Shown here: one piece after another, positions 3,247-34,619 of the stretch
Layout: each line of letters begins with the position of its first letter
Position numbering within the stretch: position 1 is the stretch's first letter
Origin: a virus
Reading direction: 5' to 3' (one strand)
DNA length: 64,000 nucleotides
Virus record (IMG/VR): IMGVR_UViG_3300006931_000005
Coordinates: 9,725 to 73,724 of that record
Made by a program: the position numbers and the translations under genes
Notes under the pieces: generated by a model
What the model was told of the DNA's origin: nothing
Database searches by the model: none
What the model saw: only the letters and a program-made list of their open reading frames with translations

Positions 3247-3260
3247 AATCTTGAAATCAG

Positions 3261-3289
3261 TTGACCTCACGGGTTTTGGGTGCTAAGAC
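3261..3289 (+). promoter_or_regulatory. sigma70-like promoter, leaderless mRNA
   Basis: TTGACC-17-TAAGAC with TG extension; ATG 3296 follows 6 nt later. Confidence 0.6.
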
Positions 3290-3295
3290 AGCACT

Positions 3296-3514
3296 ATGGC
3301 AGCAACGGATAAAGATCGTTTGGCCCGGCGTTCGGACATCAGCGGCGTCCAGCCAGTGCCGGAGATCAAGTTTCCGAAGCTTCCGGCGAGGATAGTTCAG
3401 ATTGATCCAGAGGGTTGCAAGCAGTACCAGCAGCAGCTCGATCAGGTTTTTAACGACTGGATTCAAAAGCTGAACAATGTAACAGCCGGGCTTGCAGGCC
3501 AAATAAAACCGTGA
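3296..3514 (+). CDS. small virion-operon protein
   Basis: First ORF after promoter; GTGA overlap with next gene. Confidence 0.65.
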   Translation: MAATDKDRLARRSDISGVQPVPEIKFPKLPARIVQIDPEGCKQYQQQLDQVFNDWIQKLNNVTAGLAGQIKP

Positions 3515-5652
3515 AACTTTACTCTGCACTCGATACCCCGGCGCTCAATGGGACTACCCAGACACCGATCCGGGATTTGACCGGGAGGATCACCGGATAT
3601 TCAACCAATGGCACCGGCATCTCGACGCCGCTCTATGGCGCATCTCCAGTTAAACCGACCCGCGCCAAGCCACAGCAAAATTCCGAGGGCAAGTGGATCG
3701 ACACGAGCACGGGTATGCCGTATCACGGAACGTACACCGACGAGTCGGGCCGCACGCAGTATTACTCGAACGGCCAACAGGTGAGCAACGCGGCGGATGT
3801 CGGCATCCAGCAGCAGCCTTTCAGCGTTGAGCGCACGCCGAAAAATCCAACGATCAGCGGTGCCATCGACCAGCTCCAGTCGGAAATCCCGAACACCGGC
3901 CTGATGTCGAAGTCGTTCCAGAATTATTTGTCCGAGGCCAGCCGCGTGAACGCCGATGCGAAAGGCCAGCTCGCCAAAGATCAGGCCGCATACGACACGA
4001 CCAGCACCGAGAACCGGCTGAACAACGACGTGGCATCGCAGTCGGATGCGCTGCTCGCCAACAACCGGAATTACGAGCTTGGACAAAATCAGGTTTTGAA
4101 CGATGTCGGCGCGGCCACCCGGAATTACACGGGCGACCTTACCACCTCGCTCGCCGGGCTGGAAAAAGGCACGGCGCTCACCGCAGACCAGTTGCGGAAG
4201 AACAACGCCGATTATGCAGCGAATCAAAATAATGTTCAGGCGGATGTCGCCAATCAGACCCGTGATTACACGGCTGGCGAACAGTCGCGCATCAACGATC
4301 TCAATCAGCGGGCGGCGACAACCGATGCCAATATGCGTGCGAACAACGCGCAGTATTCCACGCAGCAGCACAATGTTCAGGGTGAGATCGCCGGACAGAA
4401 CCAGACCTATTCGACCACGGTGGCTGATCGGCTGAACAAGCTGAAGTCCGATCTCGATACGCAGAACGCGCAGTACGAGAAGGCTTCGCAGGCCGTCGCG
4501 GATCAGGCGTATGGCGCGGCCCAGAAGCGGAATGATCTTTACCAGTTGACGAGCGGCACGCCGACCTCCGGCAGCGGCAACCTCGACAACCGGTACATCA
4601 AGGCTTATCAGGACATCAACATCCCGCTGCAACAGCAGCTCGCGGATCGCCGCTATCAGCAGGTCAACCAGCTCGATGCCGCGCACGCCGGGGCGGACGC
4701 GCAGAATTATCAAAACCTGATGTCGCAGTACGCGGGTGAATCCGCGCTCAACTCCGACCTATCCAATCGCGGTATGTCGCTGGAGCAATACCTTTCCAGT
4801 TTGTACGGCCAGAACTACAACGCGAACGAGAACGCGGGCCACAACATTTACGGCGCGAATCTTTCCGTGGACGCCGGGGCCAGCGCGTTGAATTCCGATC
4901 TGGCAAACCGCTCTACGAGCCTCGACCAGTATCTCCAGAGCCTTGGCACGCAGAACTACGGTGCCGAGACTTCCACTGCCGGTGCTGTGAACAACGCCCG
5001 GCTCGGCCTTGCCAGCACGACGGCTGGAATGAATACGGATTTTGCGAACCGCAACGCGGACACTACGAAGTATCTGGCCACGACCGACGCGCAAACTGCA
5101 TCGCAGATTCAGGCGCTCCGGGTGCAGACCGCAGGAATGTCCCGCGCTGCCGCCGCCAGCTATCTCCAGCAGCTCGCCGTGCCGACGCAGATGGCGCAGC
5201 AGGTCTTGGGCAACGACATCGCCAACCAGAGCGCAGTGCAAGGTCTCGACGAGCGGGCGAACGCCTACACGTTCAACACGCCCTACGACGCTTCCCGCGT
5301 TCCGGCTTCGCCCGGATTTTCTGCGGTCGCACCGCGCAGCTACACGGCCACCTCCGGCGTGAACAACGGCCCGGTGTCCGGGAATTTGAACAGCCTGCCT
5401 TCGGGCTACACCGATACCGCAAGCAGCGGTCAGGTTGGAGCCGCTGGCGCAAATGGCTGGGTGCAGGGATCGGATGGAAATTATTATGTGCCCGATGCCA
5501 CGCAGAAAACCGGCTACCGGCTGGTTTGGCAGAAGCCCGCGACTTTGGGTGGCCCTTACAATGGTAACACCTACAACGTCGGTGGCCGCACCTACAACTA
5601 CGGTGAACCTGACAGCGGCAGCGGTGTCATTGATTACGGAGTACGCGCATGA
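3511..5652 (+). CDS. putative ejection / DNA pilot protein with 47-aa repeats
   Basis: Q/N/A/S-rich helical sequence, 141-nt periodic repeats, position before other internal virion genes. Confidence 0.65.
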   Translation: MKLYSALDTPALNGTTQTPIRDLTGRITGYSTNGTGISTPLYGASPVKPTRAKPQQNSEGKWIDTSTGMPYHGTYTDESGRTQYYSNGQQVSNAADVGIQQQPFSVERTPKNPTISGAIDQLQSEIPNTGLMSKSFQNYLSEASRVNADAKGQLAKDQAAYDTTSTENRLNNDVASQSDALLANNRNYELGQNQVLNDVGAATRNYTGDLTTSLAGLEKGTALTADQLRKNNADYAANQNNVQADVANQTRDYTAGEQSRINDLNQRAATTDANMRANNAQYSTQQHNVQGEIAGQNQTYSTTVADRLNKLKSDLDTQNAQYEKASQAVADQAYGAAQKRNDLYQLTSGTPTSGSGNLDNRYIKAYQDINIPLQQQLADRRYQQVNQLDAAHAGADAQNYQNLMSQYAGESALNSDLSNRGMSLEQYLSSLYGQNYNANENAGHNIYGANLSVDAGASALNSDLANRSTSLDQYLQSLGTQNYGAETSTAGAVNNARLGLASTTAGMNTDFANRNADTTKYLATTDAQTASQIQALRVQTAGMSRAAAASYLQQLAVPTQMAQQVLGNDIANQSAVQGLDERANAYTFNTPYDASRVPASPGFSAVAPRSYTATSGVNNGPVSGNLNSLPSGYTDTASSGQVGAAGANGWVQGSDGNYYVPDATQKTGYRLVWQKPATLGGPYNGNTYNVGGRTYNYGEPDSGSGVIDYGVRA

Positions 5653-6740
5653 TTCTCTACGCATCATCTCCTGATGGGGTCGCCCAGCAGCAGAATTACT
5701 ACGACCAGCTCCGAATGAACGCGGAGCAGAACAATGCCGCACGCTTCGACGCGGCACAGGCCCGTGCGCTTCAGGCCACCCTTCAGCAACGTGAATCCGA
5801 CCGGCGCTCGCAGGATGCCGCCGATACCTCCGCAGAGCAAGCTGACCAGTTCAACCAGCGTCTTGCCTTCGAGGGTCAGCAAGGTGATCTGAACCGCGCT
5901 TCACACGAGAAGGACGTGAACACGCAGTACAGCTCGACGCACGCCGACCGGCAGGATGCGATCAATCAGCGCGATTTCGAGCAGGCTCAAAAGCTGGCCA
6001 TGGCTGGTCAGATTCCGCAGACCGAGGAGAAGGTTGCCTCGCTGTATCCGAATTTCAGCAAAGACCAGATCAAAGTTTTGGCGGCGGCAAGCTCGCAGCA
6101 CGCCTTCGACCGTTTCGGCACCGCTCTCGATATGTCGATCCGCGCCGGTAATCCGTTGCCGCTTGAAGCCGTCTCCAAGATCGTCAACCCGGACTCTCCG
6201 ATGTACAAGGACGCGATTGATTTTCGCACCGAAAAACTCGCGCCGTTCGTCCAGCAGTTCAAGACCGGTGAGGACAAGGCCCGCAAGGGAAATTTAGCAG
6301 CAAAGATTCAGGCTGATACCGAGGCTGCACCGCTTCCGACTTCATTGAGCGCCAATACCCCTATGTGGGCTGGCGGTTATGCAAATCCTATCAACTGGGG
6401 TATTCGGCTCGGCGAGCATTTGTTCCCGGATATTACCCCAGATAATACAATCCAGCCTCGTGGCGACTGGCAGACGCGGGCTCCGTCGATTGTTTCATCG
6501 CTCCGCGCTGGGAATGATCCGGCTGTAACCACAGACGTTACAACTGGAAAATTTGTGAACACGATGCTCAATCCGAACGGTGGCCCGCAAGCACCGGAGC
6601 CGATTGTTCCGCCGATCCAGCCCGGCCCGGTCGCTCCTGTCCCCGGCGTTCCGACGGTCACAACTCAAGCCCAATTTGATGCGCTGCCCAGCGGTGCCAT
6701 TTACATTGGAAAAAACGGTAAGCAATTTCGCAAGCCATGA
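5649..6740 (+). CDS. putative internal virion (ejection) protein
   Basis: Q/A-rich coiled N-terminus; C-terminal PTVTTQAQFDALPSGAIYIGKNGKQFRKP of the kind seen in podophage ejection proteins. Confidence 0.65.
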   Translation: MILYASSPDGVAQQQNYYDQLRMNAEQNNAARFDAAQARALQATLQQRESDRRSQDAADTSAEQADQFNQRLAFEGQQGDLNRASHEKDVNTQYSSTHADRQDAINQRDFEQAQKLAMAGQIPQTEEKVASLYPNFSKDQIKVLAAASSQHAFDRFGTALDMSIRAGNPLPLEAVSKIVNPDSPMYKDAIDFRTEKLAPFVQQFKTGEDKARKGNLAAKIQADTEAAPLPTSLSANTPMWAGGYANPINWGIRLGEHLFPDITPDNTIQPRGDWQTRAPSIVSSLRAGNDPAVTTDVTTGKFVNTMLNPNGGPQAPEPIVPPIQPGPVAPVPGVPTVTTQAQFDALPSGAIYIGKNGKQFRKP

Positions 6741-9700
6741 AGCAAGATGATTTTGGCGGCATCGCATTGGACGATCCACAATCATCTGACGAATTTGGTG
6801 GTGTACCGTTGGCACCTTCCACATCGACAGATGAATTCGGTGGGGCACCTTTAACTTCACCGGCTCCGATTCAAGTCCCGGCGCAGAGCCAGCCGATGCC
6901 GGAGCCGATTCCATTCAAAAACCCGGACATCATCGCGCCCGCGCCGGAAGCGCCGTCGATCCCCGGCGTCTTGGCCCGCAGCGCGGCCAGAAATGTTCTG
7001 CCGACCGCAGGATTTATTGCGGCTGCGCCAGTCGGTCGCTTGGCCGGTGCTGCTGCTGGTGCCCGCACTGGCGCTCTGCTTGGAGCTCTGGTGCCCGGTC
7101 TTGGTGAAACTGGCGTCAGTGAGGGCGTTGGCGCAGTGATTGGTGGCCTTATCGGTATGTTCGCCACTGGAACAGCGGCGGCAACTGCAACGAAAGCACT
7201 TCAGACTGGCGCTGCCGATTACGTCGCACCAGATTCTTTCCTTGGAACGAAGTCGGAGCAGGCGGATATGGCGGCACATCCCATCGCCAGTGAGCTGGGA
7301 AGCCTTGCCGTCATCGGAAAACCGAATCCGTTCAACATCATCCGGGCTGCACGCACCATCGGGTCGGATACCGGACGCGCAGCACTCGCCGATCTGTTGA
7401 AAACTGGCGCGACCAAGGGCGGCTATCAGGAATGGGCCAAGACTTACTCGCCAGAGGTGCAAAAATCTGCTGTCAACGTGCTCAACGTCGCGCAGGCGGG
7501 CGGCATCAACGCGGCTTTCAATGTGTACGACCAGATCAAATCTGGAAATTACAGCGCGGGCGACCTTTTACGGTCGGCGGCGGAGGGCGCTTTGTTCAAT
7601 GAGCCTTGGATTCACGCAAAAAATCCTGCGACCGACTCGTTTGATTCCGCACTGACACCCGAACAGGCCACGGAAGCGAATAAAAACCTCCGGGCGTTGA
7701 GCCCGTACCCGGAAACCGGGACGCCGACGAACATCTCGAAGGGGATCGTGGCCGTTCCGGTCGGTCAGCGGACGCATATCATCCAAGTGAACGGTCAGGA
7801 CGCCGCCGTTTTGAAGCACGTCGATGGCGCGGACTTTCAGAAGGCGCAGGACGATGCTGGCGCGTCCGGGTGGGACGGATATTTTCTTAAAAAAGACCCG
7901 GAGAGCGGCAATCCGACGATCTACATCAACATGGATCACCTGAACCGTCAGGATTCCCTGTTCACGCACGAGTCAACGCATTTGCTGGAGGCCATGGGGC
8001 TCATCAACCAGCAGCAGATGGACGCCGTGAACACGACCTACGGCCAGATCAAGGTCAAGGACGCCGACGGAAATGAATTGCCCATCGCTCAAGAGGTGGC
8101 GAACCGTTACGCGAAATTTAATCAGGACAACAGCCGACCGGATCAGACGCCGGAAGATTTTCAGCGCGAACTTTTCGCCAACATCCTGCAACACTGGCAT
8201 GAAACCGGGACTGCGCCGAAAGACACCTTCATCAAGCGGGCGATTGATTTCATTTCCGGCATTGCCGGGCTCGATAAATCGGGCGAACAGCACGCGAGAG
8301 ACTATATCGCTGGCCGTTTTGAGAAGGCACCTGAAGAAGCCGGAGCTCCGGCGACCGCCGATCTTGTTCCGGCTGGCGCAGCGAGCGCGGCTCCTTTGCC
8401 AAATTTGGCATTTGACAAAAATCCTGTTCCGTCGCAGGCTACGGGTGATGTCAGACAAGCCGAAGAACGAGCAGGAGCCGGAGTACCACCGCCCGCCGAA
8501 GGGGTGGAAGCCGGGAGGCCCGCCGTTGGTGCTCCGCCCGCCCGCCCCGGTGCCGAGCCCAACGCCGCCGTCCAGCAAGCCGCCAATGCCTACAACGAAG
8601 CCGTAGGTCTCGGCCCAACGCAGCCGCATTACGTCCCGGTGGACGAGGCCCGTGCCCGCCAGATCGCCGCCGAGTACGAGAAGCTTCCGAAAACCGACCA
8701 GTCTCCGCAGACCCTTGCGTCCTACGAACAGCTTGGCAAGGAAATCCAGCAGCAGTGGGATTATGCCCGGAACAAAATGGGCATCACGTTCGAGGCTTGG
8801 ACGAAAGAGGGCCAGCCCTACGCGAATTCCCGCGAGATGGTGAAGGATGTCCGGGACAATCATCACCTTTATTTTTTCACAGGCGGCGATGAGCATCCGC
8901 TGCTCAACGTCAAGGACGCTGACGGGCTCACGCTCAATGACAAGCTCCGGGCTGTCCATGACCTGTTCGGTCATGCGGCGGAAGATTTTCAATTCGGCGC
9001 ACGCGGCGAGGAAAATGCGTGGATCAAGCACAGCCAGATGTTCACTCCCCTCGCGCAGAAGGCGCTGACGACCGAGACCCGTGGCCAAAACTCGTGGGTG
9101 AATTACGGGCCGCACAATTACGAGGCGACCGGTGCCCGGAGAAACATCAAGCCGCAGGATCGTCCGTTTGCGGATCAAAAAGTTGCCCTGCTCCCTGACT
9201 GGGTGCATGATTGGAAAGGCCCGTTAAATGAAAACCAAAAAGCACAGTTCAGCGTCCCGAAACAAGCGCCCGATTTCACCGACCTCCAGTGGTGGAAGCG
9301 TGACAAATCCGAACCGGATGCAGGCGCTCGTGAATCTGGCGCTCCAAGAACTATCGCAGGTAATCCCCGCGAGCTCGCCCCCGGCGAACGCGACGGCAAA
9401 GTAACACTCACGCACTGGTCGAACTTCGACCTTCACGGAAAGGCGATTGATCCGAATTTTTACGGCTCCGGTTATGCCGGTGAGGAAAAAGGCCGTCGGG
9501 TTTTCAAAAAGTCTTGGCTGAACCGCAGCTATTTTGGAATGAAGGGCTACGTCAAAGAAGGTGGCCTTGGCCGATTCAAGCACAGCGTCACGGTGGACGT
9601 GAACAAGCTCTACGACCTGAAGAATGATCCCGACCGGCTGGGTGAAAAAGTCGGCGCGATCTCCGACCGGCTGTATCCGAAGGGTGGCACGCAAGCCGAT

Positions 9701-12700
9701 CTCACCGTTTACGAAAATCTCATCAAGAAGGCCGGGTACATCGGATACTACAACACCGATTATGCGGTGGCCGCGCTGTTCGACAAGGTGCGCGTCCCGG
9801 CCCGCGTTTCAATCATTCACTCGGTTGAAAATTTCAAGCCCGCCACACACAAGGACATGACGCCGGAGGAGCTGCTGACATCGGCGCAACAGGTGCGGAT
9901 CAAGGCTCCTTCCGGGACTACCGCATTGCGTGTGATCGACTCGAACGGCAACACCGTGATTCATAACCTGTCGAAATTCTCGACCAGAAATCCGCTGTTC
10001 AACAAGGATGTGGTGCGTGTCAGCCCGGTATCGGTGAAAACCAGTGGCGTGTACAAGAACCATCCGATCCCAGTGAAAGGGCCAGTGCGCGTCGAGCCGA
10101 CGGCGATGTTTTCGGTGCCGAAGAAAAAAGAATTTTTAGATGCGGGCGAGGAATCTCGCAATCCAAGACCTAATGCTACGACATTGCCGACTCCACCGAC
10201 AGGGGGGCTTAAAGAAATCGGAGATCGTACCGCATCTAAGTTTAATTACGATAAAAACGTGCTGGATGAAAATGGCGCGATGAAGCGATTTTATCACGGA
10301 ACAGGAAAATCGGATCAATTAGTAAAATCTGGAGGATTTAGCTATGAAAAAGCCAGCGACGAATCACTGTATGGAAAAGGATTATATTTCACTGAAAATC
10401 CTGAAATTGCTGGAGGAACAGTCGTAGGCGCTGATTTGGTAAAACGCGGATATGCTGGCAGCTCTGGTGCTGTCATTCCGGTCAACATCAATGCCAAAAA
10501 TCTTTTTGATGATTCGGTCGGTATTCCGAAGCAGCAAGCCGAAAAGCTGGTGCTAAAATATATTGATAAAAACGGTGAAAACGATGTCCAGCTTAACGGC
10601 AAGTATGGATCATTCGCCGCCGCAAAACCGGTAATTAAAGCGCGTGAATCAATAGATAATTCGTTTCGAGAATTGATTGATGATTTGGCGCAAGAAAAAT
10701 CAATTCGGGATTTAGTTAAAAAATATGTTCCAGCCGGAAGTTTATCTGGAAGCCAGACCATAAAAGATCGTTTGAGCTGGGCTTTTGGTCGGCGCAGTAT
10801 CCATAACTCAATCGCGTCTGAACAGGATAAGTCGGCTGGTGGAATACGGGCTGAATCAACAGGTGATATTAAGCAAAAAATTTACCAACTCGATGATCTT
10901 GAAAAGCAAAGCAATGCTCTTGATCGTCAAATTTCAGAGGCGATGGGGCAGGTTGGTAAGTATTCTGACTTTGTAAAAAAAGTAATTGAAAATGTTGATG
11001 GCCCTGTGAAATACGGCGATCTTACAGATATTTTTTTACAGGACAAAAACGAGGTCAATAATTTTTTAAGAAATTCTGGATACGATGGGATTACTCATAT
11101 TGGAGGAACTATCACAGGTAGCGATCCACATCGCGTTGTAATTGTTTTCGATCCGAAGCAGATTCGCTTTGCGATTGGCGCAGATCAGCCTTTCTTTTCA
11201 GTTCCAAAAAATTCATCTCAAGAGCTGAAAAAATTTCCGCGCACAGCCATCGACATTCTGATGGACGAATCGGTAATCAATCCGGTGCGTCCGAAGCAGG
11301 TTGCCGAATTCGATCTCATGGGCGATGACGAGGCCGCAGGATCGACCAGCTTCTCCCGCGTGTTCGCGGTTGCCGACCACCTTTCCCGCCGATCCGCGCA
11401 GCTTGGCGGTGGAGCCCTGCACGAGCTCAACGACACAAACGCCGAGACGCTGGCAAACACTGTGGCGAACGAGGCGGAGTACGCGATCAACCGCGATCCG
11501 AAGGCGATTGGCTGGTACGACCGCGAAATGAAGGCGGCGATGGGCCAGATTTTTAACCGGCACCCGGAGCTGAAGAAAGATCGCGGCCTGCAATCCGTTT
11601 TCAAATCCATTCTGGCGATCACCAACAACGGCCAGAATGTTTTTGCGAATTTCGCGCAGGCGGACAAGCTTTACACGGATTGGCGCACGGCGGGCAAGGT
11701 GCCGGACGAGGAGAACTGGGGCGGCAAGAGTAAGGGCGCGATCAACGACGGCCTGAAGATGCTCAACCTGCTCATCGAGAAGCTGGGCACCGCGAATCTG
11801 GAAAAGTTTTTGGCCAAGGAATTCAAGGTTGGCGATCTCAAGAGGGCTGGATTCGACATCAGTTCTGAAAACACCGAGCACATGGCGCACGGCTCGCTGA
11901 TCTACGGCCCGAAGGTCGGCGGCGGATTCTATCAAAACCTGATCGGCAACCTGAATCCGATCACGATGGATATGTGGCTCATGCGGACGATCAACCGTAT
12001 GCGCGGCACGCTCACCGAGCCCAGCCTCACGGCGCTCCCGGATCAGATCGACCGGTTCATCAAGTCGATGAAGAAGCAGCCGGACAGCGAGGCGATTATC
12101 GCGGATGCCAAGCGCGTGAAGCAGCAGATTTTGGACGGCACGCTCGACGTGAACAAGGAGAAGGATGCTCCGGGTGTGATGCTGACCGCCGCCAAGAATT
12201 TGTACGACGATTACCGCAACAGCGGGTTCGTAAAGCGGACGGAGCTCAACCGCAGCTCGAAGCTGATCGCCGAGGAATTTTTCGGCATCAACGAAGCGCC
12301 GACTTCGGCGTCCGAGCGTGATTTCATCCGCAATGTTTTCGTCCGGGCGCAGGAGAAGTTGAAAGCGAAAAAAATCGACATCACGAACGCCGACCTGCAA
12401 GCCGTTCTGTGGTATCTTGAGAAGGATATTTATGGAAAACTTGGAGCAACCGACCGCCGATCCGCGCCCGCCAGCTACTCGGACGCCGCCGCAGCCCTCA
12501 ACCGAAAACAGCTCGGACTTTTCGATGAAGAACAAGGACGATCAGGCGATCTTCGAGGAGCTGAATCCGCTGGCCCGGAGATCAATCGCTTCGGTGAAGC
12601 TGGCAAGCAGCTTACTGGCGCACAGGCGCTCAAGCGGGTCTCCGTCCAAGAAGCGGAGCCTGTACCGCAGTTCTCGGTGACGAAGAAGCTGAAGTTTTAC

Positions 12701-15700
12701 GAAGGCAAACGCTTCGGTGACGTGAAGGACGAGGTGGTGCCGGAAGTTCCGCCGTTTCATCCGCTCGGCGTCGAACAATTCAAGCAGGCCCGCGACAGCA
12801 TCGTGAACCTCGCGCACACGACCGGCGCGATCCAAGCGCGTGGTATGCGGATCAACTTCGCCAACCCTGATCCGGTCACGGCCAAGCGCCTTGGCGTTGA
12901 CCAGAACAGCATGGTGGCCCGCGCCATCCACGCGATCTCAAATTCCGACCGGCGCACGGCGAACGAAAACAAGGTGCTGCTCGCCGACAACATTTTGAAC
13001 ACGGTGAAGCAGGCTGATTTCGTCACCAAGATTCAACGTGATTCAACGGACGGTGATAATGTCGGCCAGTACGGTACGGCATTCATCAAGGCTTACGATA
13101 TTGACGGCAAGAAGGTCTGGCACCTTGTCCAAGTGGACGGCAATGGTGATTTTATCACGCAATTTTCTTGGCCGGATACGGAAGCTGAAAATGGACGGGT
13201 GATGCGGTCGCAGATTGTGCAGGTTGGTCAGCGGGTTGGTGGTTTGCTAGAGTCGAAGGTTAATCCGCAGGCCGAAGCCCCGACGCCTTCTAATTTCGCT
13301 CCGCCAACCGCTGACCAAGGTGAGATTGCCACATCTGGCAAAGAGGCGCAACCTCAATTTTCAGTAGCCAAGGAGGAGAAGCGGGCGCAGGTCGGCGGCA
13401 TCCCTGAAGTCGGTCAGGTGCGCGATACCGAATCCATTTCCGACAACCAAGCGCACATCCGCGAGCGCCTGTTCGACGGCACGCAGCCTGTTTCTGACGA
13501 GAACACATCCGCCGCGTGGCAGGTATTCGACGAGATGACGGGCAACAACCGCTCCCAGATCGCCGGGCAGTTGAAAGACGCCTTTGGCGGATCGCGGCTG
13601 CTCCTTGGCCTATATAAAGGCGAGGTCTGGAAGTACGCCCGCAAGCTGGCGGTCAACGGTGACGATTCGCTGCTGCGGGCGATGTACGATCACAGCGAAC
13701 AGTTTGAGACCCTTGCCGGTGGTGGCGCATCAACCGCTGGCTCCGCGCTCCGGGCCGAGGCCGAGAATGCAAACGATCCGGTCAACCGGGCACTCCAGTC
13801 CGCCTACGAGACCGAGCGCGAAAATGCGGCCCAGTCCGCCTCCGGCATCGACCGCGAGACCTTCACCGGACTGCTCAAGCGCCTGCGTAGCCTGAAGCTG
13901 ACGCCGGACGAGGTTGAGAAGGTGGTCAAGGAGGGCAAGCTGCCGGACGGCAAAACCCTCGAAGAAGCTTTGGACGAGCTTACGCCGGAATCGAAGGAGG
14001 CCATGGCGTTGCTCGACAAGTATCAGCGTTCGCAGACGGAATGGCTGAAGCCGGACGTGAAGAAGTCGATCATCCGCGTGATCGTGGACGCCGCCATCGG
14101 CGAGAACAAGCTGGCGCGTTACGACGAGAAGGATTTTCAGGATCGGTTGTCCACCCGGCTGCAAGAAGCCACGGTGCCGAAGGAAGTCGCCGACCAGCTC
14201 GCGTTCGAGGTGTGGAAAGACAAGGCTGCACGCGAGGCCACCAAGACCGACAAGGCTGTCAAGGCGGATGCCGCGTTCGAGCAGAACCGGGCGCAGGCCA
14301 TTCTCGACAAATTGCAATCTGACCAGACCGAAGTGTTCAGTCAGGCCCGGCGCTCGAAGGTTGCTGACATCGTTAAGGCGTTTTACAAAAACCCTGCGGC
14401 GTCCGAAGAAGTGCGAGCCCAGCAGATCGCGCAGCTCGAAAAAGATTTGGTTAATGAGACCGTGAAACCCGCAACGGCCAAGGAGCTGGCGCGGGAAGCT
14501 GGCCAGCGCAAGCTGGTGCTCGAAGCAAACGACCGGCTGGCGCAGGAGAAGGTCACGGCCAACGAAGCGCAGCAGACCGCTGAACGCGAGCTCGCAAAAT
14601 TCGAGGAGAAAAACTCCGGTGTCGAATGGCTGAAGGAAAAAGGCAAACGCGATCAGGTGCTTCAGGCGATTGCCGATGCGCTGAAGTCGAAGTCGCCGAT
14701 CCTCGATGATCCGACACCGCTGGTGAACGAGACCAAGGCGAAGCTCACTGCGCTCGGCGTAGATGAGGCCACGGCGGGCAAGCTGGCTTTCGAGATCGAG
14801 ACCGTCCGGCGCACGCAGTTCGCCAACAGCCGCGTGAAGGCGATGGAAAATGCCGCCAAATCTAAAAGCCTGCGGTCGCTCATCGAATCTATCCTCGAAA
14901 CCCCGTACCGCGCCCAGTCCGACCCGAAATGGCTGCATGAAACTGCTGTCCGCTGGTTCGAGTCGAACGGTCTCGGCAAGGATCAGGCTGAAGCCGCCGC
15001 CCGGCTGTTCGACAAGGAGTTTAAAGAGGCGTTGGCGCAGGCCAGCACCAAGGTTGCCGAGGCTGAACTGAAGAAAAAAGTATCGCCCCGCACTTACGAT
15101 GATCTGGAGCGGTTGATCCGGGCCGGAATTTTCGACCCGGACAAAAACTGGATCGACCAGCTCGCGGCGAAGAACGGCTGGAAGAAGCCATCGCGTGACC
15201 AGATGCTCAAATTGCAGGAATTGGAGCACAAGCTTTCCGATCCTGAATTGTCACCCGAAGAAGTGCGCGACATCCAAGAGCAGCAGATGCACGTCCTGCG
15301 TCACGTCGGCAAAAAAAGGGGCCAGACCCTCCGGGCGCTCGGCGAATCGTTCACTGCCTCGCTGCTGTCCGGCATCCGCACGCTTACCGTGCAGACCTCG
15401 CCGACGGTCATGGCCCTCCGCGATCTGCCGATCATGGCGCTGTCCGATCCGAAGAACGCGATGAATTTTGCGAAGGCGATGTACAACTCCTTCAAGGCAA
15501 ATGCGGTCGCGGCGTTCAAATTCGCGTGGATGAAGGACGCCTACGGTTTTCACTTGAGCGAGCTGGAGCACGGCTTCAACGAGATGAAGCGCATCTCCGA
15601 GGAGACGGATCAGGTGGTCAACTCAAAGACCTCGACGCCGGTTGCCAAGGCGCTCGCGTACACCAAGAAGCTCTACGCGCTCCAGCGTTTTGTTTTCCGC

Positions 15701-17515
15701 AACCTGAATTCCATCGACCAAGCTTCGATGGCTGTCACCCGCGAATGGAAGCTGGCGTATTATTCCGCTTCTGCGTTCAAAGAAGCCGGGCTGACGAACA
15801 CGGACATTTCGCAGTTGATCGACCACATCGAGATGCTGCGTAAAAACGAATTCGAGAAAGCCATCGACGCCGGGCTGGATGCGAACACGGCCAAGGTGCG
15901 GGCCAACAGCCGGGTCGCGGATTCCGTCTGGGATTTCGTGAATAACAAGACCGGTCGCAGCGATCTTGCGGATCAGGTTATCAAGGCTACCGAGAACGAC
16001 GTGTACTCCACCGTCGGTCGTGTGCCGCACGGCTTGAATTCAACGGATGAAGGCTTCCTGACCCGGTTCTCCGGCTTTAATCATTTCCTGCAATTCGTGT
16101 CCAAGGTTCGCGGCGAAGGCGGGCTCCAGAACATCGGCACCACGGCGCTGATCGGCATGATTAACATTCCATTCCGCACGACCCGTTATTTTTCTGACTT
16201 CTCGCCCTACGGCCTGCTGCGCTACGGTATCTACAAGTACCGGCTGAATCGCGGCAAGGAAAACTTCTGGAAACAGACGTATGGCAACGCGCTTCAGGCT
16301 CGCGCCCGGCTGTACTCCGCGCTCGCGGGCACCGTTGCCATGGCCGCAGCGACCGCATGGGCGCTCAAGAGCAACACGGCGGACGACAAGGCTGGTGACG
16401 AGGACTTCGGCCTGTACATCACCGGCAAGGGGCCGAACAACAAGGTGCTGGCCGATGCGTGGGTCAAGCGTGGATTCAAGCAGTATTCGGCAAACTTTGT
16501 TTTCGGTGGCCACATCGTTGCGATTCCGCTGACCCGTGCGGGCGAAGCCCTGATGATGCCCTTCATCCTGCCCGCCGCGCTCGATGACTATGCGTGGAAA
16601 TCGAAAGAGGCGGAAGCGGGCGGTCATCCGATCAAGACTCCGATTTCATCCGCCACTGCATCACTGATCGGCGAGGCAATGTACATGACCGGCCAGTCAG
16701 GTATCCTCCAGACTTTTGGCCAGCTCCAGCAGGCGACTGAAAACGGCGGCAGCTTGGGCAAGGCGGCGGTCAAGGTCGGTGTGAGCGCGGCATCATCGAC
16801 GGTGTTACCCTTCCGCCAGCTCCTCGCGTCCGTGAGCGAAATGCTTTTCGGAAGCATGGATAATTCAAGCATCAGCTCGCTGATCGCAAACCAGTTTCCA
16901 ATCGTGGGCCTGCCGTTTCAGAATCCGGCTGTCAACCGCTTTGGTGATCCGATGTACGACCGTAGCTGGTACGGTCTGATCGCCCGCACTGGCGTTCCCA
17001 TCGCTTTTCAGATTTCGCGTTCGCCGGAAAATGAGCGGTTGTACACGACGCTCGTGGAAAAAGGAATTTCGCCACCGCCGCTGAATCGCTCCGATCTTGA
17101 ATCGAAGTACGGCGACATGACCGATCAGCAGTTCAAGCAGTTTGCTACCGTTTCAGGTCAGGCGTTGAAGCAGGCAATCACAAAGAATCTTCCCGACCTT
17201 CAGGGCATGAGCTCGGTGGACGCGAAGAACCTGATGTTCAAGCTGGCGATGCAGGCGAACGCTCAAGCGGCCATGGCCATTGGCGTGGCTCCGCAGCCCG
17301 CAGCCGGTCAGACTGCCGCCGCAGGGTCGGCTGGTGCCGCGCCGTCGAAACAGAAAAAGGCGAAGCTTTCCAAGGCGTCTAAATCAGTCCGGTCGCTTTA
17401 CAAGCTGCCGAAGATGAGCCTGTCTCCGGTCGGTAAGAAATCTCACAAATCGACCACGGCCCGGCGCGGTGGATCGCTCTACGGCGTGCAGCCACGCCAC
17501 CTCTACGGCACCTGA
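6737..17515 (+). CDS. giant polyvalent ejected virion protein (3592 aa): HExxH peptidase-like, HDxxGH domain, two ADP-ribosyltransferase-like modules, HhH glycosylase-like, BECR-like nuclease, helical C-terminus
   Basis: THESTH; RAVHDLFGH..F..RGEENAW; LTHWS..RSYFG; FYHGT..YGKGLYFT..GYDGI..VVIVFDPKQIR; GWY..GPKVG..ITMDMW..LQAVLW; modules joined by FSVxK. Confidence 0.85.
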   Translation: MKQDDFGGIALDDPQSSDEFGGVPLAPSTSTDEFGGAPLTSPAPIQVPAQSQPMPEPIPFKNPDIIAPAPEAPSIPGVLARSAARNVLPTAGFIAAAPVGRLAGAAAGARTGALLGALVPGLGETGVSEGVGAVIGGLIGMFATGTAAATATKALQTGAADYVAPDSFLGTKSEQADMAAHPIASELGSLAVIGKPNPFNIIRAARTIGSDTGRAALADLLKTGATKGGYQEWAKTYSPEVQKSAVNVLNVAQAGGINAAFNVYDQIKSGNYSAGDLLRSAAEGALFNEPWIHAKNPATDSFDSALTPEQATEANKNLRALSPYPETGTPTNISKGIVAVPVGQRTHIIQVNGQDAAVLKHVDGADFQKAQDDAGASGWDGYFLKKDPESGNPTIYINMDHLNRQDSLFTHESTHLLEAMGLINQQQMDAVNTTYGQIKVKDADGNELPIAQEVANRYAKFNQDNSRPDQTPEDFQRELFANILQHWHETGTAPKDTFIKRAIDFISGIAGLDKSGEQHARDYIAGRFEKAPEEAGAPATADLVPAGAASAAPLPNLAFDKNPVPSQATGDVRQAEERAGAGVPPPAEGVEAGRPAVGAPPARPGAEPNAAVQQAANAYNEAVGLGPTQPHYVPVDEARARQIAAEYEKLPKTDQSPQTLASYEQLGKEIQQQWDYARNKMGITFEAWTKEGQPYANSREMVKDVRDNHHLYFFTGGDEHPLLNVKDADGLTLNDKLRAVHDLFGHAAEDFQFGARGEENAWIKHSQMFTPLAQKALTTETRGQNSWVNYGPHNYEATGARRNIKPQDRPFADQKVALLPDWVHDWKGPLNENQKAQFSVPKQAPDFTDLQWWKRDKSEPDAGARESGAPRTIAGNPRELAPGERDGKVTLTHWSNFDLHGKAIDPNFYGSGYAGEEKGRRVFKKSWLNRSYFGMKGYVKEGGLGRFKHSVTVDVNKLYDLKNDPDRLGEKVGAISDRLYPKGGTQADLTVYENLIKKAGYIGYYNTDYAVAALFDKVRVPARVSIIHSVENFKPATHKDMTPEELLTSAQQVRIKAPSGTTALRVIDSNGNTVIHNLSKFSTRNPLFNKDVVRVSPVSVKTSGVYKNHPIPVKGPVRVEPTAMFSVPKKKEFLDAGEESRNPRPNATTLPTPPTGGLKEIGDRTASKFNYDKNVLDENGAMKRFYHGTGKSDQLVKSGGFSYEKASDESLYGKGLYFTENPEIAGGTVVGADLVKRGYAGSSGAVIPVNINAKNLFDDSVGIPKQQAEKLVLKYIDKNGENDVQLNGKYGSFAAAKPVIKARESIDNSFRELIDDLAQEKSIRDLVKKYVPAGSLSGSQTIKDRLSWAFGRRSIHNSIASEQDKSAGGIRAESTGDIKQKIYQLDDLEKQSNALDRQISEAMGQVGKYSDFVKKVIENVDGPVKYGDLTDIFLQDKNEVNNFLRNSGYDGITHIGGTITGSDPHRVVIVFDPKQIRFAIGADQPFFSVPKNSSQELKKFPRTAIDILMDESVINPVRPKQVAEFDLMGDDEAAGSTSFSRVFAVADHLSRRSAQLGGGALHELNDTNAETLANTVANEAEYAINRDPKAIGWYDREMKAAMGQIFNRHPELKKDRGLQSVFKSILAITNNGQNVFANFAQADKLYTDWRTAGKVPDEENWGGKSKGAINDGLKMLNLLIEKLGTANLEKFLAKEFKVGDLKRAGFDISSENTEHMAHGSLIYGPKVGGGFYQNLIGNLNPITMDMWLMRTINRMRGTLTEPSLTALPDQIDRFIKSMKKQPDSEAIIADAKRVKQQILDGTLDVNKEKDAPGVMLTAAKNLYDDYRNSGFVKRTELNRSSKLIAEEFFGINEAPTSASERDFIRNVFVRAQEKLKAKKIDITNADLQAVLWYLEKDIYGKLGATDRRSAPASYSDAAAALNRKQLGLFDEEQGRSGDLRGAESAGPEINRFGEAGKQLTGAQALKRVSVQEAEPVPQFSVTKKLKFYEGKRFGDVKDEVVPEVPPFHPLGVEQFKQARDSIVNLAHTTGAIQARGMRINFANPDPVTAKRLGVDQNSMVARAIHAISNSDRRTANENKVLLADNILNTVKQADFVTKIQRDSTDGDNVGQYGTAFIKAYDIDGKKVWHLVQVDGNGDFITQFSWPDTEAENGRVMRSQIVQVGQRVGGLLESKVNPQAEAPTPSNFAPPTADQGEIATSGKEAQPQFSVAKEEKRAQVGGIPEVGQVRDTESISDNQAHIRERLFDGTQPVSDENTSAAWQVFDEMTGNNRSQIAGQLKDAFGGSRLLLGLYKGEVWKYARKLAVNGDDSLLRAMYDHSEQFETLAGGGASTAGSALRAEAENANDPVNRALQSAYETERENAAQSASGIDRETFTGLLKRLRSLKLTPDEVEKVVKEGKLPDGKTLEEALDELTPESKEAMALLDKYQRSQTEWLKPDVKKSIIRVIVDAAIGENKLARYDEKDFQDRLSTRLQEATVPKEVADQLAFEVWKDKAAREATKTDKAVKADAAFEQNRAQAILDKLQSDQTEVFSQARRSKVADIVKAFYKNPAASEEVRAQQIAQLEKDLVNETVKPATAKELAREAGQRKLVLEANDRLAQEKVTANEAQQTAERELAKFEEKNSGVEWLKEKGKRDQVLQAIADALKSKSPILDDPTPLVNETKAKLTALGVDEATAGKLAFEIETVRRTQFANSRVKAMENAAKSKSLRSLIESILETPYRAQSDPKWLHETAVRWFESNGLGKDQAEAAARLFDKEFKEALAQASTKVAEAELKKKVSPRTYDDLERLIRAGIFDPDKNWIDQLAAKNGWKKPSRDQMLKLQELEHKLSDPELSPEEVRDIQEQQMHVLRHVGKKRGQTLRALGESFTASLLSGIRTLTVQTSPTVMALRDLPIMALSDPKNAMNFAKAMYNSFKANAVAAFKFAWMKDAYGFHLSELEHGFNEMKRISEETDQVVNSKTSTPVAKALAYTKKLYALQRFVFRNLNSIDQASMAVTREWKLAYYSASAFKEAGLTNTDISQLIDHIEMLRKNEFEKAIDAGLDANTAKVRANSRVADSVWDFVNNKTGRSDLADQVIKATENDVYSTVGRVPHGLNSTDEGFLTRFSGFNHFLQFVSKVRGEGGLQNIGTTALIGMINIPFRTTRYFSDFSPYGLLRYGIYKYRLNRGKENFWKQTYGNALQARARLYSALAGTVAMAAATAWALKSNTADDKAGDEDFGLYITGKGPNNKVLADAWVKRGFKQYSANFVFGGHIVAIPLTRAGEALMMPFILPAALDDYAWKSKEAEAGGHPIKTPISSATASLIGEAMYMTGQSGILQTFGQLQQATENGGSLGKAAVKVGVSAASSTVLPFRQLLASVSEMLFGSMDNSSISSLIANQFPIVGLPFQNPAVNRFGDPMYDRSWYGLIARTGVPIAFQISRSPENERLYTTLVEKGISPPPLNRSDLESKYGDMTDQQFKQFATVSGQALKQAITKNLPDLQGMSSVDAKNLMFKLAMQANAQAAMAIGVAPQPAAGQTAAAGSAGAAPSKQKKAKLSKASKSVRSLYKLPKMSLSPVGKKSHKSTTARRGGSLYGVQPRHLYGT
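8397..8440 (+). promoter_or_regulatory. internal operator plus promoter inside the giant gene
   Basis: TGCCA-AATT-TGGCA (8397-8410), then TTGACA(8412)-17-CAGGCT(8435); ATG at 8448. Confidence 0.55.
8448..8606 (+). CDS. nested +1-frame micro-protein (52 aa, MSDKPKNEQEPEYHRPPKGWKPG...)
   Basis: Own promoter; G/C third-position bias moves to this frame. Confidence 0.5.
   Translation: MSDKPKNEQEPEYHRPPKGWKPGGPPLVLRPPAPVPSPTPPSSKPPMPTTKP
9228..9404 (+). CDS. nested +1-frame micro-protein (58 aa, ...MQALVNLALQELSQVIP...)
   Basis: Spans first FSVPK linker; G/C third-position bias in this frame over its second half. Confidence 0.42.
   Translation: MKTKKHSSASRNKRPISPTSSGGSVTNPNRMQALVNLALQELSQVIPASSPPANATAK
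12525..12680 (+). CDS. nested +1-frame micro-protein (51 aa, MKNKDDQAIFEELNPLARR...)
   Basis: Giant frame has atypical A/T-ending codons here (GAA CAA GGA CGA TCA) while +1 frame reads AAG AAC AAG GAC GAT CAG GCG ATC TTC GAG GAG CTG. Confidence 0.52.
   Translation: MKNKDDQAIFEELNPLARRSIASVKLASSLLAHRRSSGSPSKKRSLYRSSR
13226..13316 (-). ncRNA. antisense structured RNA embedded in the giant gene
   Basis: Long closing stem GGUCAGCGGUUGGCGG/CCACCAACCCGCUGACC; GGC-UUCG-GCC hairpin on minus strand; 5' G follows a -10 box by 6 nt. Confidence 0.6.
13323..13351 (-). promoter_or_regulatory. antisense promoter with operator
   Basis: TTGCGC-17-CAATCT; TCTTTGCCAGATGTGGCA is 17/18 identical to the tRNA-cluster promoter. 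Confidence 0.6.
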
Positions 17516-17525
17516 AAATTCCCTG

Positions 17526-17553
17526 TTGACTTCTTTGCCAGATTTGGCATTGT
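17526..17553 (+). promoter_or_regulatory. promoter with TGCCA-N4-TGGCA operator
   Basis: TTGACT-16-CATTGT with TG extension; palindrome at 17536-17549. Confidence 0.6.
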
Positions 17554-17559
17554 TACTTC

Positions 17560-17630
17560 GTGGCCCGAATAACGGAGCGTTACCGTAACGGCGAAGTCCT
17601 CTGGATGGAGCGTGCAAGAGCAGAGGCCAC
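17560..17630 (+). ncRNA. unknown structured RNA at predicted transcription start
   Basis: GTGGCC/GGCCAC closing stem; CGTTA/TAACG hairpin; alternative CCTCTG/CAGAGG pairing. Confidence 0.4.
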
Positions 17631-17633
17631 GAC

Positions 17634-17707
17634 GCGGAAGTAGCTCAATGGTAGAGCCGCCGTTTTCCAAACGGCACACGAGAGTTCGATTCTCTCTTTC
17701 CGCTCCA
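17634..17707 (+). tRNA. tRNA-Gly(TCC)
   Basis: GCGGAAG/TTTCCGC acceptor, GCTC/GAGC D arm, GCCGT-TTTCCAA-ACGGC, GAGAG-TTCGATT-CTCTC, U73 and encoded CCA. Confidence 0.96.
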
Positions 17708-17802
17708 ATTACCGAGTGCCGGAATCAGATTCCGTCAGCCTAGTTGCATGGGCGCATTGCATCCGCAGCGGTGGGCGAATTCCACCGCACGATTTGCAGA
17801 GC

Positions 17803-17888
17803 GGTGGGTGCGGAGTACGGCTCGTAGCTGGATACTACGGATGCGGCCAACCAGTCCGAGTGGAAAAGCCAGCACGCACCTGCCACCA
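17803..17888 (+). ncRNA. tRNA-like RNA with GGA (Ser) pseudo-anticodon and ACCA end
   Basis: GGTGGGTGCG/CGCACCTGCC stem plus ACCA; CGTAG-CTGGATA-CTACG arm; no canonical T loop. Confidence 0.45.
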
Positions 17889-17895
17889 ATTTGAA

Positions 17896-18309
17896 ATGGA
17901 AAAAAAACGACTAATTTTTAACTCGCCGACGAATGACGAGCTTAAAGTGCTGAAGCACTTTTTGCCGAAGATCAAGGCGCAAGCCGAGTCCGAGGCGTCA
18001 ACTGATGTCAAAGCCAAGCGCGGTGCTCTAGTTCAAAAATTCTGCGGCATCTGCGGCGAGAGCCTGATCGACAAGCAGAAGCGAAGTCCGAATCCAAAAT
18101 TGTGCAAAGAGTGCGATGAATTTTTAACCGCTGGCCAGACCGCTCTTGTCACGATGGATGGGCGCTATGCGTTTGTACAATCTGACGGCTCCGAGGAGGC
18201 AAAGGCGATAGCTGGAAAAATCATTCCGGTTGAATCCAAGCTGCTGGATGAAATGGCGCAGAAACAAGGCATCGAAATCAAAGAGAATCCCAATGTCAAA
18301 AACAACTGA
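17896..18309 (+). CDS. hypothetical Zn-finger protein (start moved to ATG 17896)
   Basis: CGIC..CKEC; upstream part of the called ORF lies over the RNA cluster. Confidence 0.7.
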   Translation: MEKKRLIFNSPTNDELKVLKHFLPKIKAQAESEASTDVKAKRGALVQKFCGICGESLIDKQKRSPNPKLCKECDEFLTAGQTALVTMDGRYAFVQSDGSEEAKAIAGKIIPVESKLLDEMAQKQGIEIKENPNVKNN

Positions 18310-18652
18310 TAAAACCCTTCTGGAATTTATGAATCGCATCCCCCCGGCGCTCTGCCGGGCGATGGCCGTGAATTGCGGCAAGGGCAAGACGCCGGTTCTC
18401 AAGCCGAACGAGGAGATCGTCGAGCGGAGCGGTCTCAATCTGCGAACGATCTGCCGGTTGAACTACGCGCCGTCGTGGAAGGGAATCCGCATCGAGGTCG
18501 CGTCCGCGTTCATCTACGGCTGCGGTTTCAACATCCTGAAAAACAGCGACGTGAACCGGTTTTTGAAATTGAAAACGGCGACGGACTTTTCACACCTGAT
18601 GCCGTTCCAGAAGAAGCTGCTTTGGCAGGCGATGAACTGGTCTGAAAAATAA
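18293..18652 (+). CDS. hypothetical, possibly HTH DNA-binding protein
   Basis: EEIVERSGLNLRTICRL helix-turn-helix-like segment. Confidence 0.5.
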   Translation: MSKTTDKTLLEFMNRIPPALCRAMAVNCGKGKTPVLKPNEEIVERSGLNLRTICRLNYAPSWKGIRIEVASAFIYGCGFNILKNSDVNRFLKLKTATDFSHLMPFQKKLLWQAMNWSEK

Positions 18653-18654
18653 TT

Positions 18655-19104
18655 ATGAAATTGCAATTTGGCTGCGGTGAAAACAGGCTCCCGGACTTCG
18701 AGAACCATGACAATGACCTCGATGTGTGTGTCTGGCCACTTCCGTTCCCTGACGGAAGCGCCGACATCATATTCGCCGAACATCTGGGGGAGCACCTGAA
18801 TTCGCCGCAGCTTCTTGGCTTTCTGACCGAGTGCTACCGCATCCTGAAGCCCGGTGGTGTCATGCGCCTTTGCTGCCCGGTGATCGGGCCGCACCTGAAG
18901 CGTGAGCACGCCCGCGATCTGGCGATCAACCATGGCCATCAGCAGACGTTGAACCGTGAGTCGATGTTCACATTCCTGTGGATGGCTGGATTCGATTGGG
19001 GCTCGATCAATGCCACCGAGCGCCGTGATATAGATGGTCACTGGAAGATTATCGGCAAAGAGAAGGATGATCTGGAGACCTGTCGCATGGAGGCTAGGAA
19101 GTGA
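18655..19104 (+). CDS. class I SAM methyltransferase (type 11-like)
   Basis: LQFGCG, PLPFPDGSADII..EH, ECYRILKPGG. Confidence 0.88.
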   Translation: MKLQFGCGENRLPDFENHDNDLDVCVWPLPFPDGSADIIFAEHLGEHLNSPQLLGFLTECYRILKPGGVMRLCCPVIGPHLKREHARDLAINHGHQQTLNRESMFTFLWMAGFDWGSINATERRDIDGHWKIIGKEKDDLETCRMEARK

Positions 19105-19454
19105 AGTGGGCCACGCTCATCCTGCTGCTCGCGCTCCAGCTCCGGGCCGCTGACAACCAGCCAGTGATCTACACGACGTTCGTGTATAACGATTTTTACA
19201 CGGGTCGTCAGTATTGCTCGTGCTATGCGAGCAACGTCCAATACGGCACGCTTTGGGAGTTTCAAGTTAATACAAACCTCGCCACGACCAACTGGGTTCA
19301 TTTTGGCAGCGATTACTACACCGGATGGGGGACAAATTATTACTGGGTGCCGTATGCGATGGCAGACTGGCCGACGGATCGTGGCCCGCAGGCTTTTTTT
19401 CGGATGCGCCAGATTGGTACAAATTTTATGTTCTACCCGTTTTATCAGCTATGA
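19101..19454 (+). CDS. exported protein with Verrucomicrobia-type TNL..W...FFR motif
   Basis: Signal peptide MKWATLILLLALQLRA; QVNTNLATTNW...QAFFR. Confidence 0.7.
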   Translation: MKWATLILLLALQLRAADNQPVIYTTFVYNDFYTGRQYCSCYASNVQYGTLWEFQVNTNLATTNWVHFGSDYYTGWGTNYYWVPYAMADWPTDRGPQAFFRMRQIGTNFMFYPFYQL

Positions 19455-20020
19455 ACGAAATCATCCATCTGCCGAAACGCATCGACCTGATCGCCATGCT
19501 ACCGCAGGGCTCGGTGATCGCCGAGATTGGCGTCTGGCGCGGTTACTTCTCTTGCGAGATGCTGAACTTGCCGAATCTTGGCCATCTCTACCTGATCGAC
19601 GCATGGAAGTCCCAGCCCGGTTACAACGATCCGCTGTCCGATGCCGACCACGAGGCGAATCTGGCGGAGACCAAGCGCAACATTAGCGGCCACATTCCCG
19701 GTGGCCGGGTCACGATCATCCGTGCCGATTCGGACAAGGCTGTCACGCACGAGCATTTCAAAGAGCAGCCACGGCTCGATGCGATCTTTCTCGACGCCGA
19801 TCATTCGTATGACGCAGTTCTCCGCGATCTCCGGTACTGGGTGAAATTCGTCAAGCCTAACGGCTGGATCATGGGCCATGATTACACGAACAACGCCATG
19901 TCCCAGCAGCACAAGTGGGGCGTGATCCCGGCTGTCGCTGATTTCTGTGACGAATTTGGCTGGAAACTCACACACCTGACCGACGAGGATTTTGCGTCCT
20001 TCGGCCTGCGAAAAGCATGA
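19451..20020 (+). CDS. class I SAM methyltransferase (Methyltransf_24-like)
   Basis: AEIGVWRG, IDAW, IFLDADHSYDAV..D, GHDY. Confidence 0.9.
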   Translation: MNEIIHLPKRIDLIAMLPQGSVIAEIGVWRGYFSCEMLNLPNLGHLYLIDAWKSQPGYNDPLSDADHEANLAETKRNISGHIPGGRVTIIRADSDKAVTHEHFKEQPRLDAIFLDADHSYDAVLRDLRYWVKFVKPNGWIMGHDYTNNAMSQQHKWGVIPAVADFCDEFGWKLTHLTDEDFASFGLRKA

Positions 20021-20601: not shown

Positions 20602-20855
20602 AAATTAAACAGATAGATTGGCAAGAAAGGCCAAGCGAGCGTTACCCAAATTCAAAACTTTGGGTTGGTAGCGTAGGTGGTAAATTTATTTTTGGCGCTA
20701 CAAATTCAATGCAAGACGGAAGCGGTCAGTGGGGACTCCAGTTTTTCATCGGCCTACATCCAGATGAAAACGTGAAGTGGTTTCCAACTGTTGAAAAAAT
20801 GAAAGAGGCGGCAACATTGCTTCTTGAAAACCACGTCAAAGGATTGATCGAATGA
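20598..20855 (+). CDS. hypothetical protein (AT-rich insert)
   Basis: ATGA overlaps on both sides. Confidence 0.6.
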   Translation: MKIKQIDWQERPSERYPNSKLWVGSVGGKFIFGATNSMQDGSGQWGLQFFIGLHPDENVKWFPTVEKMKEAATLLLENHVKGLIE

Positions 20856-22545: not shown

Positions 22546-22574
22546 CCGCAGTAAACCAATAAACAAAAACTGAT

Positions 22575-22934: not shown

Positions 22935-22936
22935 TT

Positions 22937-23791: not shown

Positions 23792-23793
23792 TT

Positions 23794-31387: not shown

Positions 31388-31391
31388 AAAT

Positions 31392-32831: not shown

Positions 32832-32871
32832 TTCCAACAGCGGAATATAACCCTCCGCTAAAAATAAAATT

Positions 32872-34596: not shown

Positions 34597-34619
34597 TTTG
34601 GTCATGGTCTGGTGTCAAG

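Follow-up and report, generated by a model that had tools for sequence, protein, structure and literature searches.

Prohead proteases of phages cut internal head proteins at a short consensus, which is L/I-x-E for T4 gp21 and S/A/G-x-E for phiKZ gp175. In both phages, capsid and scaffold proteins bear this motif too, and a prohead protease gene can be recognised. [quoted passage not shown] That account already proposes that such proteins are autoprocessed by a zincin, with RNA-virus polyproteins as the analogy, and it cites the N4 virion RNA polymerase as a polyvalent protein that has a zincin domain and is packaged uncut. The podovirus OANV1 (Octadecabacter Antarctic BD virus 1) encodes a gp16 of 2,986 aa in a gp14–gp15–gp16 position before the tailspike gene (PMC9239159).

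The locus analysed here belongs to an uncultured phage. The window is the whole stretch of 64,000 nucleotides that was analysed, positions 9,725 to 73,724 of IMG/VR record IMGVR_UViG_3300006931_000005. The genome comprises 73,724 bp with direct terminal repeats, is rated 100% complete and contains phage replication and tail genes. ORF 6737–17515 is open on the plus strand for 3,592 codons, and its ATG overlaps the stop of an upstream 363-aa ORF (ATGA). The giant protein of the window is referred to as P0001; other P-numbers denote giant homologues, and G-numbers denote phage genomes. The features, in window coordinates, are as follows.

3511–5652, plus strand: 713-aa ORF, two genes upstream of the giant gene
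5649–6740, plus strand: 363-aa ORF, translationally coupled to the giant gene, with no family match
6737–17515, plus strand: giant polyvalent-protein gene, 3,592 aa, with homologues in at least 42 giant proteins
6746–6844, plus strand: three N-terminal D-x-F-G-G repeats (aa 4, 18 and 32), seen in the sequence
6959–7231, plus strand: Gly/Ala-rich hydrophobic segment (aa about 75–165), conserved in P0003, P0044 and P0045
7724–8281, plus strand: HExxH domain (aa about 330–515), a candidate metallopeptidase, with invariant residues in four homologues
8327–8533, plus strand: Pro/Ala-rich low-complexity linker (aa 531–599), without FSVxK
8534–9226, plus strand: module A (aa about 600–830), a phrog_3170-type domain found in 5,023 protein clusters
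9248–9262, plus strand: junction 1 (J1), FSVPK (aa 838–842)
9263–10108, plus strand: module 1 (aa 843–1124), an unnamed domain with a BLAST homology core at aa about 872–1034
10109–10123, plus strand: junction 2 (J2), FSVPK (aa 1125–1129), in GC-rich resident codons
10124–11236, plus strand: low-GC cassette (codons 1130–1500), ART-PolyVal (aa 1177–1482) and junction 3, from GC3 and profile match
11195–11209, plus strand: junction 3 (J3), FSVPK (aa 1487–1491), in AT-rich cassette codons
11237–12670, plus strand: module 3 (aa 1501–1978), an unnamed domain common to about 17 giant proteins by BLAST
12671–12685, plus strand: junction 4 (J4), FSVTK (aa 1979–1983)
12686–13261, plus strand: module 4 (aa 1984–2175), with a weak lead to MuF_C/PBECR nuclease clusters
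13358–13372, plus strand: junction 5 (J5), FSVAK (aa 2208–2212)
13373–17512, plus strand: C-terminal backbone (aa 2213–3592), a helical region followed by hydrophobic segments at aa 3192–3210 and 3260–3278

The chain appears to consist of a backbone and a central array carried by it. The backbone would comprise the N-terminal repeats and hydrophobic region, the HExxH domain and a 1,380-residue helical and hydrophobic C-terminal part. The array would hold five effector cassettes (module A, module 1, an ADP-ribosyltransferase, module 3 and module 4), and the peptide x-F-S-V-x-K is present at every cassette boundary, in a linker that is otherwise unconserved.

P0001 belongs to a known class, and the idea of its processing is already published. 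As predicted from its domains, it is a very large, phage-encoded chain with several unrelated effector-type domains, and it resembles the polyvalent proteins of PMC5512222 in combining ART-PolyVal with other effector-type domains and an HExxH domain. Unlike the polyvalent MPTase, that HExxH domain has no match to Pfam MPTase-PolyVal. OANV1 gp16 is homologous to P0001, so that a second likeness, to the T7 gp16-type core or ejection protein, lies in the T7-like gp14-15-16 position of this homologue and in the C-terminal hydrophobic segments. Compared with T7 gp16, P0001 is nearly three times longer and carries effector cassettes, the likeness being one of position and hydrophobic segments. The surroundings also differ from those in T7: the giant gene has replication genes on its upstream side (DnaB, SSB, endonucleases, an exonuclease, HNH and DUF7178) and is followed by a tRNA and a glycan cluster. 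By analogy, OANV1 synteny and family knowledge support, though they do not prove, that the giant protein is packaged and ejected with the DNA.

An earlier note on this DNA had pointed to five FSVxK linkers in the 3,592-aa protein, and they are indeed there. The F residues are at aa 838, 1125, 1487, 1979 and 2208, with codons at nt 9248, 10109, 11195, 12671 and 13358; the coordinates given earlier (9245, 10106, 11192, 12668 and 13355) are those of the residue before each F. From composition, 0.04 copies would be expected (Poisson p about 7e-10), and FSVxK is the top-enriched gapped four-residue pattern in P0001 at that same p of about 7e-10. The best pattern in a control set of 60 shuffled giant proteins reached p = 6.8e-7. 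All five cassette junctions carry FSVxK, and the junction between the HExxH domain and module A is without it. The motif is conserved at the level of the protein, as had been claimed. From J1 to J5, Ser is encoded by AGC, TCG, TCA, TCG and TCA, and Val by GTC, GTG, GTT, GTG and GTA, which uses all four Val codons; both codons are also in use for Phe and for Lys. The flanks of the five copies are unrelated to one another (6% identity). Because the codons vary, Ser even between AGC and TCN, while the residues stay the same, selection acts on the peptide and not on the DNA.

The distribution of the motif is narrow. In the complete 73.7-kb genome, two plausible genes alone contain FSVx[K/R]: the giant ORF and, with a single copy, the adjacent ORF of 713 aa. 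The same holds for G003, the phage of P0003, where the motif is likewise restricted to the corresponding pair of genes. TQFGA was found three times in G001, a third complete phage, always inside the giant ORF and again with differing codons. The arrangement resembles the processing of T4 and phiKZ head proteins in that a short phage-specific motif is placed on proteins that are, or in the present case would be, packaged and ejected. It differs in that only the giant gene and a single neighbour bear the motif, and in that the genome has no S77, S78 or S49 match.

The claim that the motif falls between domains passed a check of domain boundaries. (i) ART-PolyVal (PF18760) extends over aa 1177–1482, between J2 and J3, and covers profile positions 1–136 of 140. 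Its score is 41.6 bits when the module is scanned alone, compared with a curated cut-off of 31.2, and 29.4 bits in the whole-protein scan. (ii) Among the best 150 of 5,023 homologous clusters of module A, the match nearly always ends at query positions 262–275, and in most of the best approximately 150 homologues this end lies 4–17 residues before J1. (iii) BLAST segment ends from 42 giant relatives cluster at the FSVxK motifs, delimiting module 1 (839–1034), module 3 (about 1517–1976), module 4 (1948–2214) and a C-terminal part from 2207. In the same BLAST comparison of giant relatives, the C-terminal backbone (aa 2213–3592) is common only to P0003 and P0045.

P0001 has ART-PolyVal and at least four other modules, each with an independent set of homologues. 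Language-model and protein-atlas comparisons give module 4 a weak lead to MuF_C/PBECR nucleases, and an AlphaFold2 (AF2) model of module 4 with J4 and J5 has a pLDDT of 35, too low for it to bear on BECR or on how the linkers are ordered. Of the zincin, ART and BECR domains that the earlier note listed for such proteins, ART-PolyVal stands above its cut-off, the HExxH domain gives no clear zincin match and BECR is a weak lead. A second DUF7178-like domain inside the giant protein was rejected, as it amounted to a 26-residue BLAST match with E = 0.036. The profiles of LPD23 and LPD1, both protein-atlas suggestions, had no match in the genome, and PDB sequence searches with P0001, the A1 profile and the 713-aa and 363-aa neighbours returned nothing useful.

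Composition adds a further line of evidence, cassette capture at the tags, which is a contribution of this window. The GC3 of aa 1125–1486 is 0.34, and that of every neighbouring module is 0.67–0.77. A two-change-point fit, with a log-likelihood gain of 57, places the drop at codon 1130 (support 1128–1132), the first codon after the Lys of J2. The recovery falls at codon 1501 (support 1496–1505), about 10 codons past J3, which is the start of homology to module 3 of P0004. The ADP-ribosyltransferase cassette is compositionally foreign. Since J2 is written in GC-rich codons and J3 in AT-rich ones, the incoming cassette brought its own FSVPK.

The window also contributes an independent capture in another phage and, separately, the conservation of an FSVx[K/R] site in the protein encoded next to the giant one. 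P0003 comes from the 70.9-kb phage G003 and is 63% identical to P0001. It is without modules 2 and 3, and the breakpoints are at the motif: its sole junction there is preceded by the upstream flank of J2 and followed by the downstream flank of J4. Between FSAAK and FSVSK, P0003 carries a different, canonical ART, at a place where P0001 has J5 alone. The GC3 of this cassette (aa 1440–1616, within locus L011, G003 17236–26208) is 0.39, compared with 0.59–0.73. As the low-GC ARTs occupy different junctions in P0001 and P0003, the two phages have captured different ART cassettes. Orthologous junctions in P0003 and P0045 keep the tag across 35–50% sequence divergence. The earlier description of the modules as swappable is borne out by the GC3 change points at J2 and J3, the cassette indels of P0003 and the independent low-GC ART cassettes; as judged from these comparisons, the motif marks points of cassette gain and loss.

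Motif discovery protein by protein showed that about 20 related giant proteins carry a recurrent junction peptide of their own, again with unrelated flanks. The tag is I-x-FMP in P0023, P0029, P0030 and P0031, [FY]LPAK in P0021 and P0024, I-x-FSR in P0042, RSTxRD in P0038 and [FY]SV[RD] in P0034. P0045, a full-length relative of the backbone, has six copies of FSA. Further tags are FSSG (P0049/L006), RFS[KAI] (P0004), TQFGA (P0006/L003) and ESRAV (P0007-9), and others found elsewhere are AQFxP, LHPxD, [FY]SPER, LTPxE, HAYAP, NLKP, GLKT, ESxRP, SRQR and QVGK. In P0123 the tag is LHP[KR]D (aa 682–1499), followed in three of four copies by x-x-GQF. Not every relative is tagged: none was found in OANV1 gp16 or Pag-Yong1.

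Different tags occupy the same position relative to homologous domains. The C-terminus of the ART domain (signature SATGNxGxF..DI[RT]) is followed, depending on the protein, by FMP, YLPAK, FSR, YSL, RSTxRD, R[ST]GR, FSVSK or [FY]SVR. Module A (signature RPFAxQK) is followed by FSVPK, FSA, FSSG, ESRAV, TQFGA, FMP, YLPAK, AQFxP, LHPxD, SPER or others. A survey covered 125 giant relatives of at least 1,500 aa, with a top motif counted as significant at p below 2e-7, and 24 of them had one. In proteins with a significant motif and a module A anchor, the motif lay 17–34 residues past the anchor in 12 of 19 cases, where 2.2 would be expected; proteins without a significant motif had one at the same offset in 11 of 69 (Fisher p = 1e-4). 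Because the tags are uniform within a protein, differ between lineages and occupy the same positions, a lineage-specific reader is implied. In the text of the 2017 account neither 'linker' nor 'FSV' appears, and 'cleavage site' appears once; the junctions here have a defined peptide that is uniform per protein and differs between lineages. A junction code with these properties, marking points of exchange, was not found in the literature searched.

The preferred reading is that the FSVxK junctions are processing sites of a phage polyprotein, and on the comparisons above its probability is put at roughly 0.55. Every lineage of phages would have its own factor that reads the peptide. This is most likely an endopeptidase, whose cuts would free the individual enzymes in the manner of RNA-virus polyproteins. 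A hydrophobic residue at P1' is a frequent preference of zincins, and a cut just before the Phe would therefore fit. Such a cut, which the earlier note placed after ejection, may fall in the capsid or in the host. Comparative support for cleavage comes from the homogeneous junction peptides that relatives have of their own at the same positions.

It is distinctly less probable that the motif is a docking strand in a chain that stays intact. An extended F-x-V segment would then bind a repeated phage partner, for which the capsid interior, a chaperone, or proteins of the portal or core (the 713-aa neighbour, for instance) may be proposed, and the modules would be folded, packed or threaded in order. 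The comparative data require a lineage-specific reader and nothing more, which docking would also provide, and the alternating hydrophobics of F-S-V and I-x-F suit beta-strand addition. The Q-x-FSVx[K/R]-T-x-KNP of the 713-aa protein, of which F and V are kept in distant homologues, looks more structural than linker-like, and there is the precedent of the N4 virion RNA polymerase, packaged uncut (PMC5512222). Against binding, however, the motifs immediately follow the ends of domains, within unconserved linkers rich in Pro, Gln, Glu and Lys, like polyprotein sites; purely polar dialects such as RSTxRD, SRQR and QVGK would make poor docking strands; and no partner of matching copy number has been identified. 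A by-product of cassette insertion at short shared sequences, or a generic linker preference with no reader and no role, would account for breakpoints of gain and loss that coincide with the motif or lie no more than about 10 codons away, and a cassette inserted next to a junction would duplicate it, yet it is improbable given that third positions and the Ser codon family differ around four invariant residues, which indicates selection on the peptide, that the tag persists at the orthologous junctions of P0003 and P0045, that tags are uniform per lineage despite their flanks and that the low-GC cassette brought its FSVPK in low-GC codons.

If cleavage at the junctions is real, the protease is somewhat more probably the HExxH domain of the same chain than any other factor. 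The N-terminal HExxH (THESTH) reported earlier was found as HESTH at aa 411–415, upstream of the cassette array. H411, E412, H415, D474, E478 and A481 are invariant in four homologues. In an AF2 model of the domain (mean pLDDT 69), H411, E412 and H415 lie in a predicted helix, 108–120, that follows a beta-sheet, and D474, E478 and A481 lie in helix 173–191. The model thus has the predicted hallmark of a zincin, an HExxH in a helix and a downstream Glu-bearing helix. Foldseek gave no match to the model at E ≤ 0.001, and VIA returned a best Z of 4.4, with Certhrax/lethal-factor-like proteins, PPEP-3 and YbeY at Z 3.4–3.8 and no clear fold. Searching all six frames of the genome with PF18818 (MPTase-PolyVal) gave nothing at E ≤ 10, and Pfam scans did not match it either. 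A complex prediction for the HExxH domain (aa 324–531) and a 40-residue J2 peptide scored 0.00, which speaks neither for nor against binding.

An HExxH upstream of the cassette array is also present in most tagged relatives. The detectable homologues of the domain itself, in P0003, P0045, P0049/L006 and P0004 and remotely in P0017/18/25, all occur with [FY]-S-x tags. As tag type largely follows module A phylogeny, this association of tag and HExxH family is confounded by shared ancestry. In the set of 125 giant relatives, 19 of the 24 with a significant motif and 61 of the remaining 101 have an HExxH, a difference that is not significant (p = 0.10). P0144, P0123 and P0157 have clear tags without HExxH, and P0021 has HEVGE (aa about 920–930) where its relative P0024 has HEMGH, and keeps eight Y/FLP tags; these four may be fragments or may depend on a protease encoded elsewhere. 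Profile searches recognised no other protease family in the genome, the S77, S78 and S49 models included. ORF 57419–59041 on the minus strand, labelled 'ATP-dependent protease' by PHROGs, was dropped as reader because Pfam finds an AAA ATPase only and no protease domain. Self-cleavage of the Nup98/PIDD HFS type was also rejected: no His precedes the F, and Ser is not conserved across dialects (FMP, YLP, FQP).

A wider proposal, offered tentatively as a possibility well short of even odds, is that the junction peptides form a private punctuation code. The reader of a lineage, probably an embedded protease, would see only its own tag of 4–6 residues. A cassette would work only if flanked by the tag of the recipient, so that phages of the same dialect would be communities of cassette exchange across GC boundaries, and the low-GC ART cassette with its own FSVPK would be one such exchange. 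In a tree of module A the dialects are mostly clustered, with 16 changes where the minimum is 15; free shuffling of module A between dialects, which had been expected, is not what this tree shows. P0008 has 67% module A identity and an unrelated backbone, compared with 51% in P0045, which shares the backbone, and only this contrast suggests transfer. Through the FSVx[K/R] of the 713-aa neighbour, the same reader would also act on a second virion protein.

That site reads QQQP-FSVER-TPKNP and is at aa 104–108 (nt 3820–3834) of the 713-aa protein. Q-x-FSVx[K/R]-T-x-KNP is kept in eight homologues, including one in the phage of P0003, and distant homologues keep F-x-V. The chance expectation of FSVx[K/R] in the rest of the proteome is about 0.3 by a rough estimate, so that one occurrence is not unlikely. 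Either the reader of the giant protein may act here too, at a sixth site, or FSVER may be a structural strand. G001 and G002 yielded no homologue of the 713-aa protein.

Polyvalent proteins are regarded as the first weapons that a phage delivers. Since 2017 they have been hypothesised to process themselves, but with no sites defined. With a protein-specific junction peptide, the residues to mutate and the termini to seek by mass spectrometry can be named exactly. Junction tags also offer a sequence-based way to split thousands of unannotated giant proteins into functional cassettes. Should the tags be read by co-evolving proteases, they would provide orthogonal protease and site pairs as well as a rule for which phages exchange effector cassettes.

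PHROG and Pfam searches identified no capsid, portal, scaffold, terminase or prohead protease among the genome ORFs, and a blastn search of isolated phages with window positions 3500–9000, which cover the upstream ORFs and the opening 2.3 kb of the giant gene, gave no hit. Late ORFs of 783, 479, 574, 729, 1143, 603 and 599 aa at 28759–45500 have almost no PHROG or Pfam match, the matches being DUF5977, VWA, P-domain and one tail hit only. Relatives have their own versions of the triple N-terminal repeats, namely FDD..P in P0003, I.ASD in P0030, WDD.T in P0156 and QIHA in P0106; these repeats may be a packaging or portal-binding signal that is also lineage-variable. ARAGORN detected a single tRNA-Gly(TCC) at 17634–17707, shortly after the end of the giant gene. 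A cluster at 18655–26831, which separates the giant gene from the large late ORFs, encodes two methyltransferases, a DXD glycosyltransferase, a GalE-like epimerase and further GT-like ORFs.
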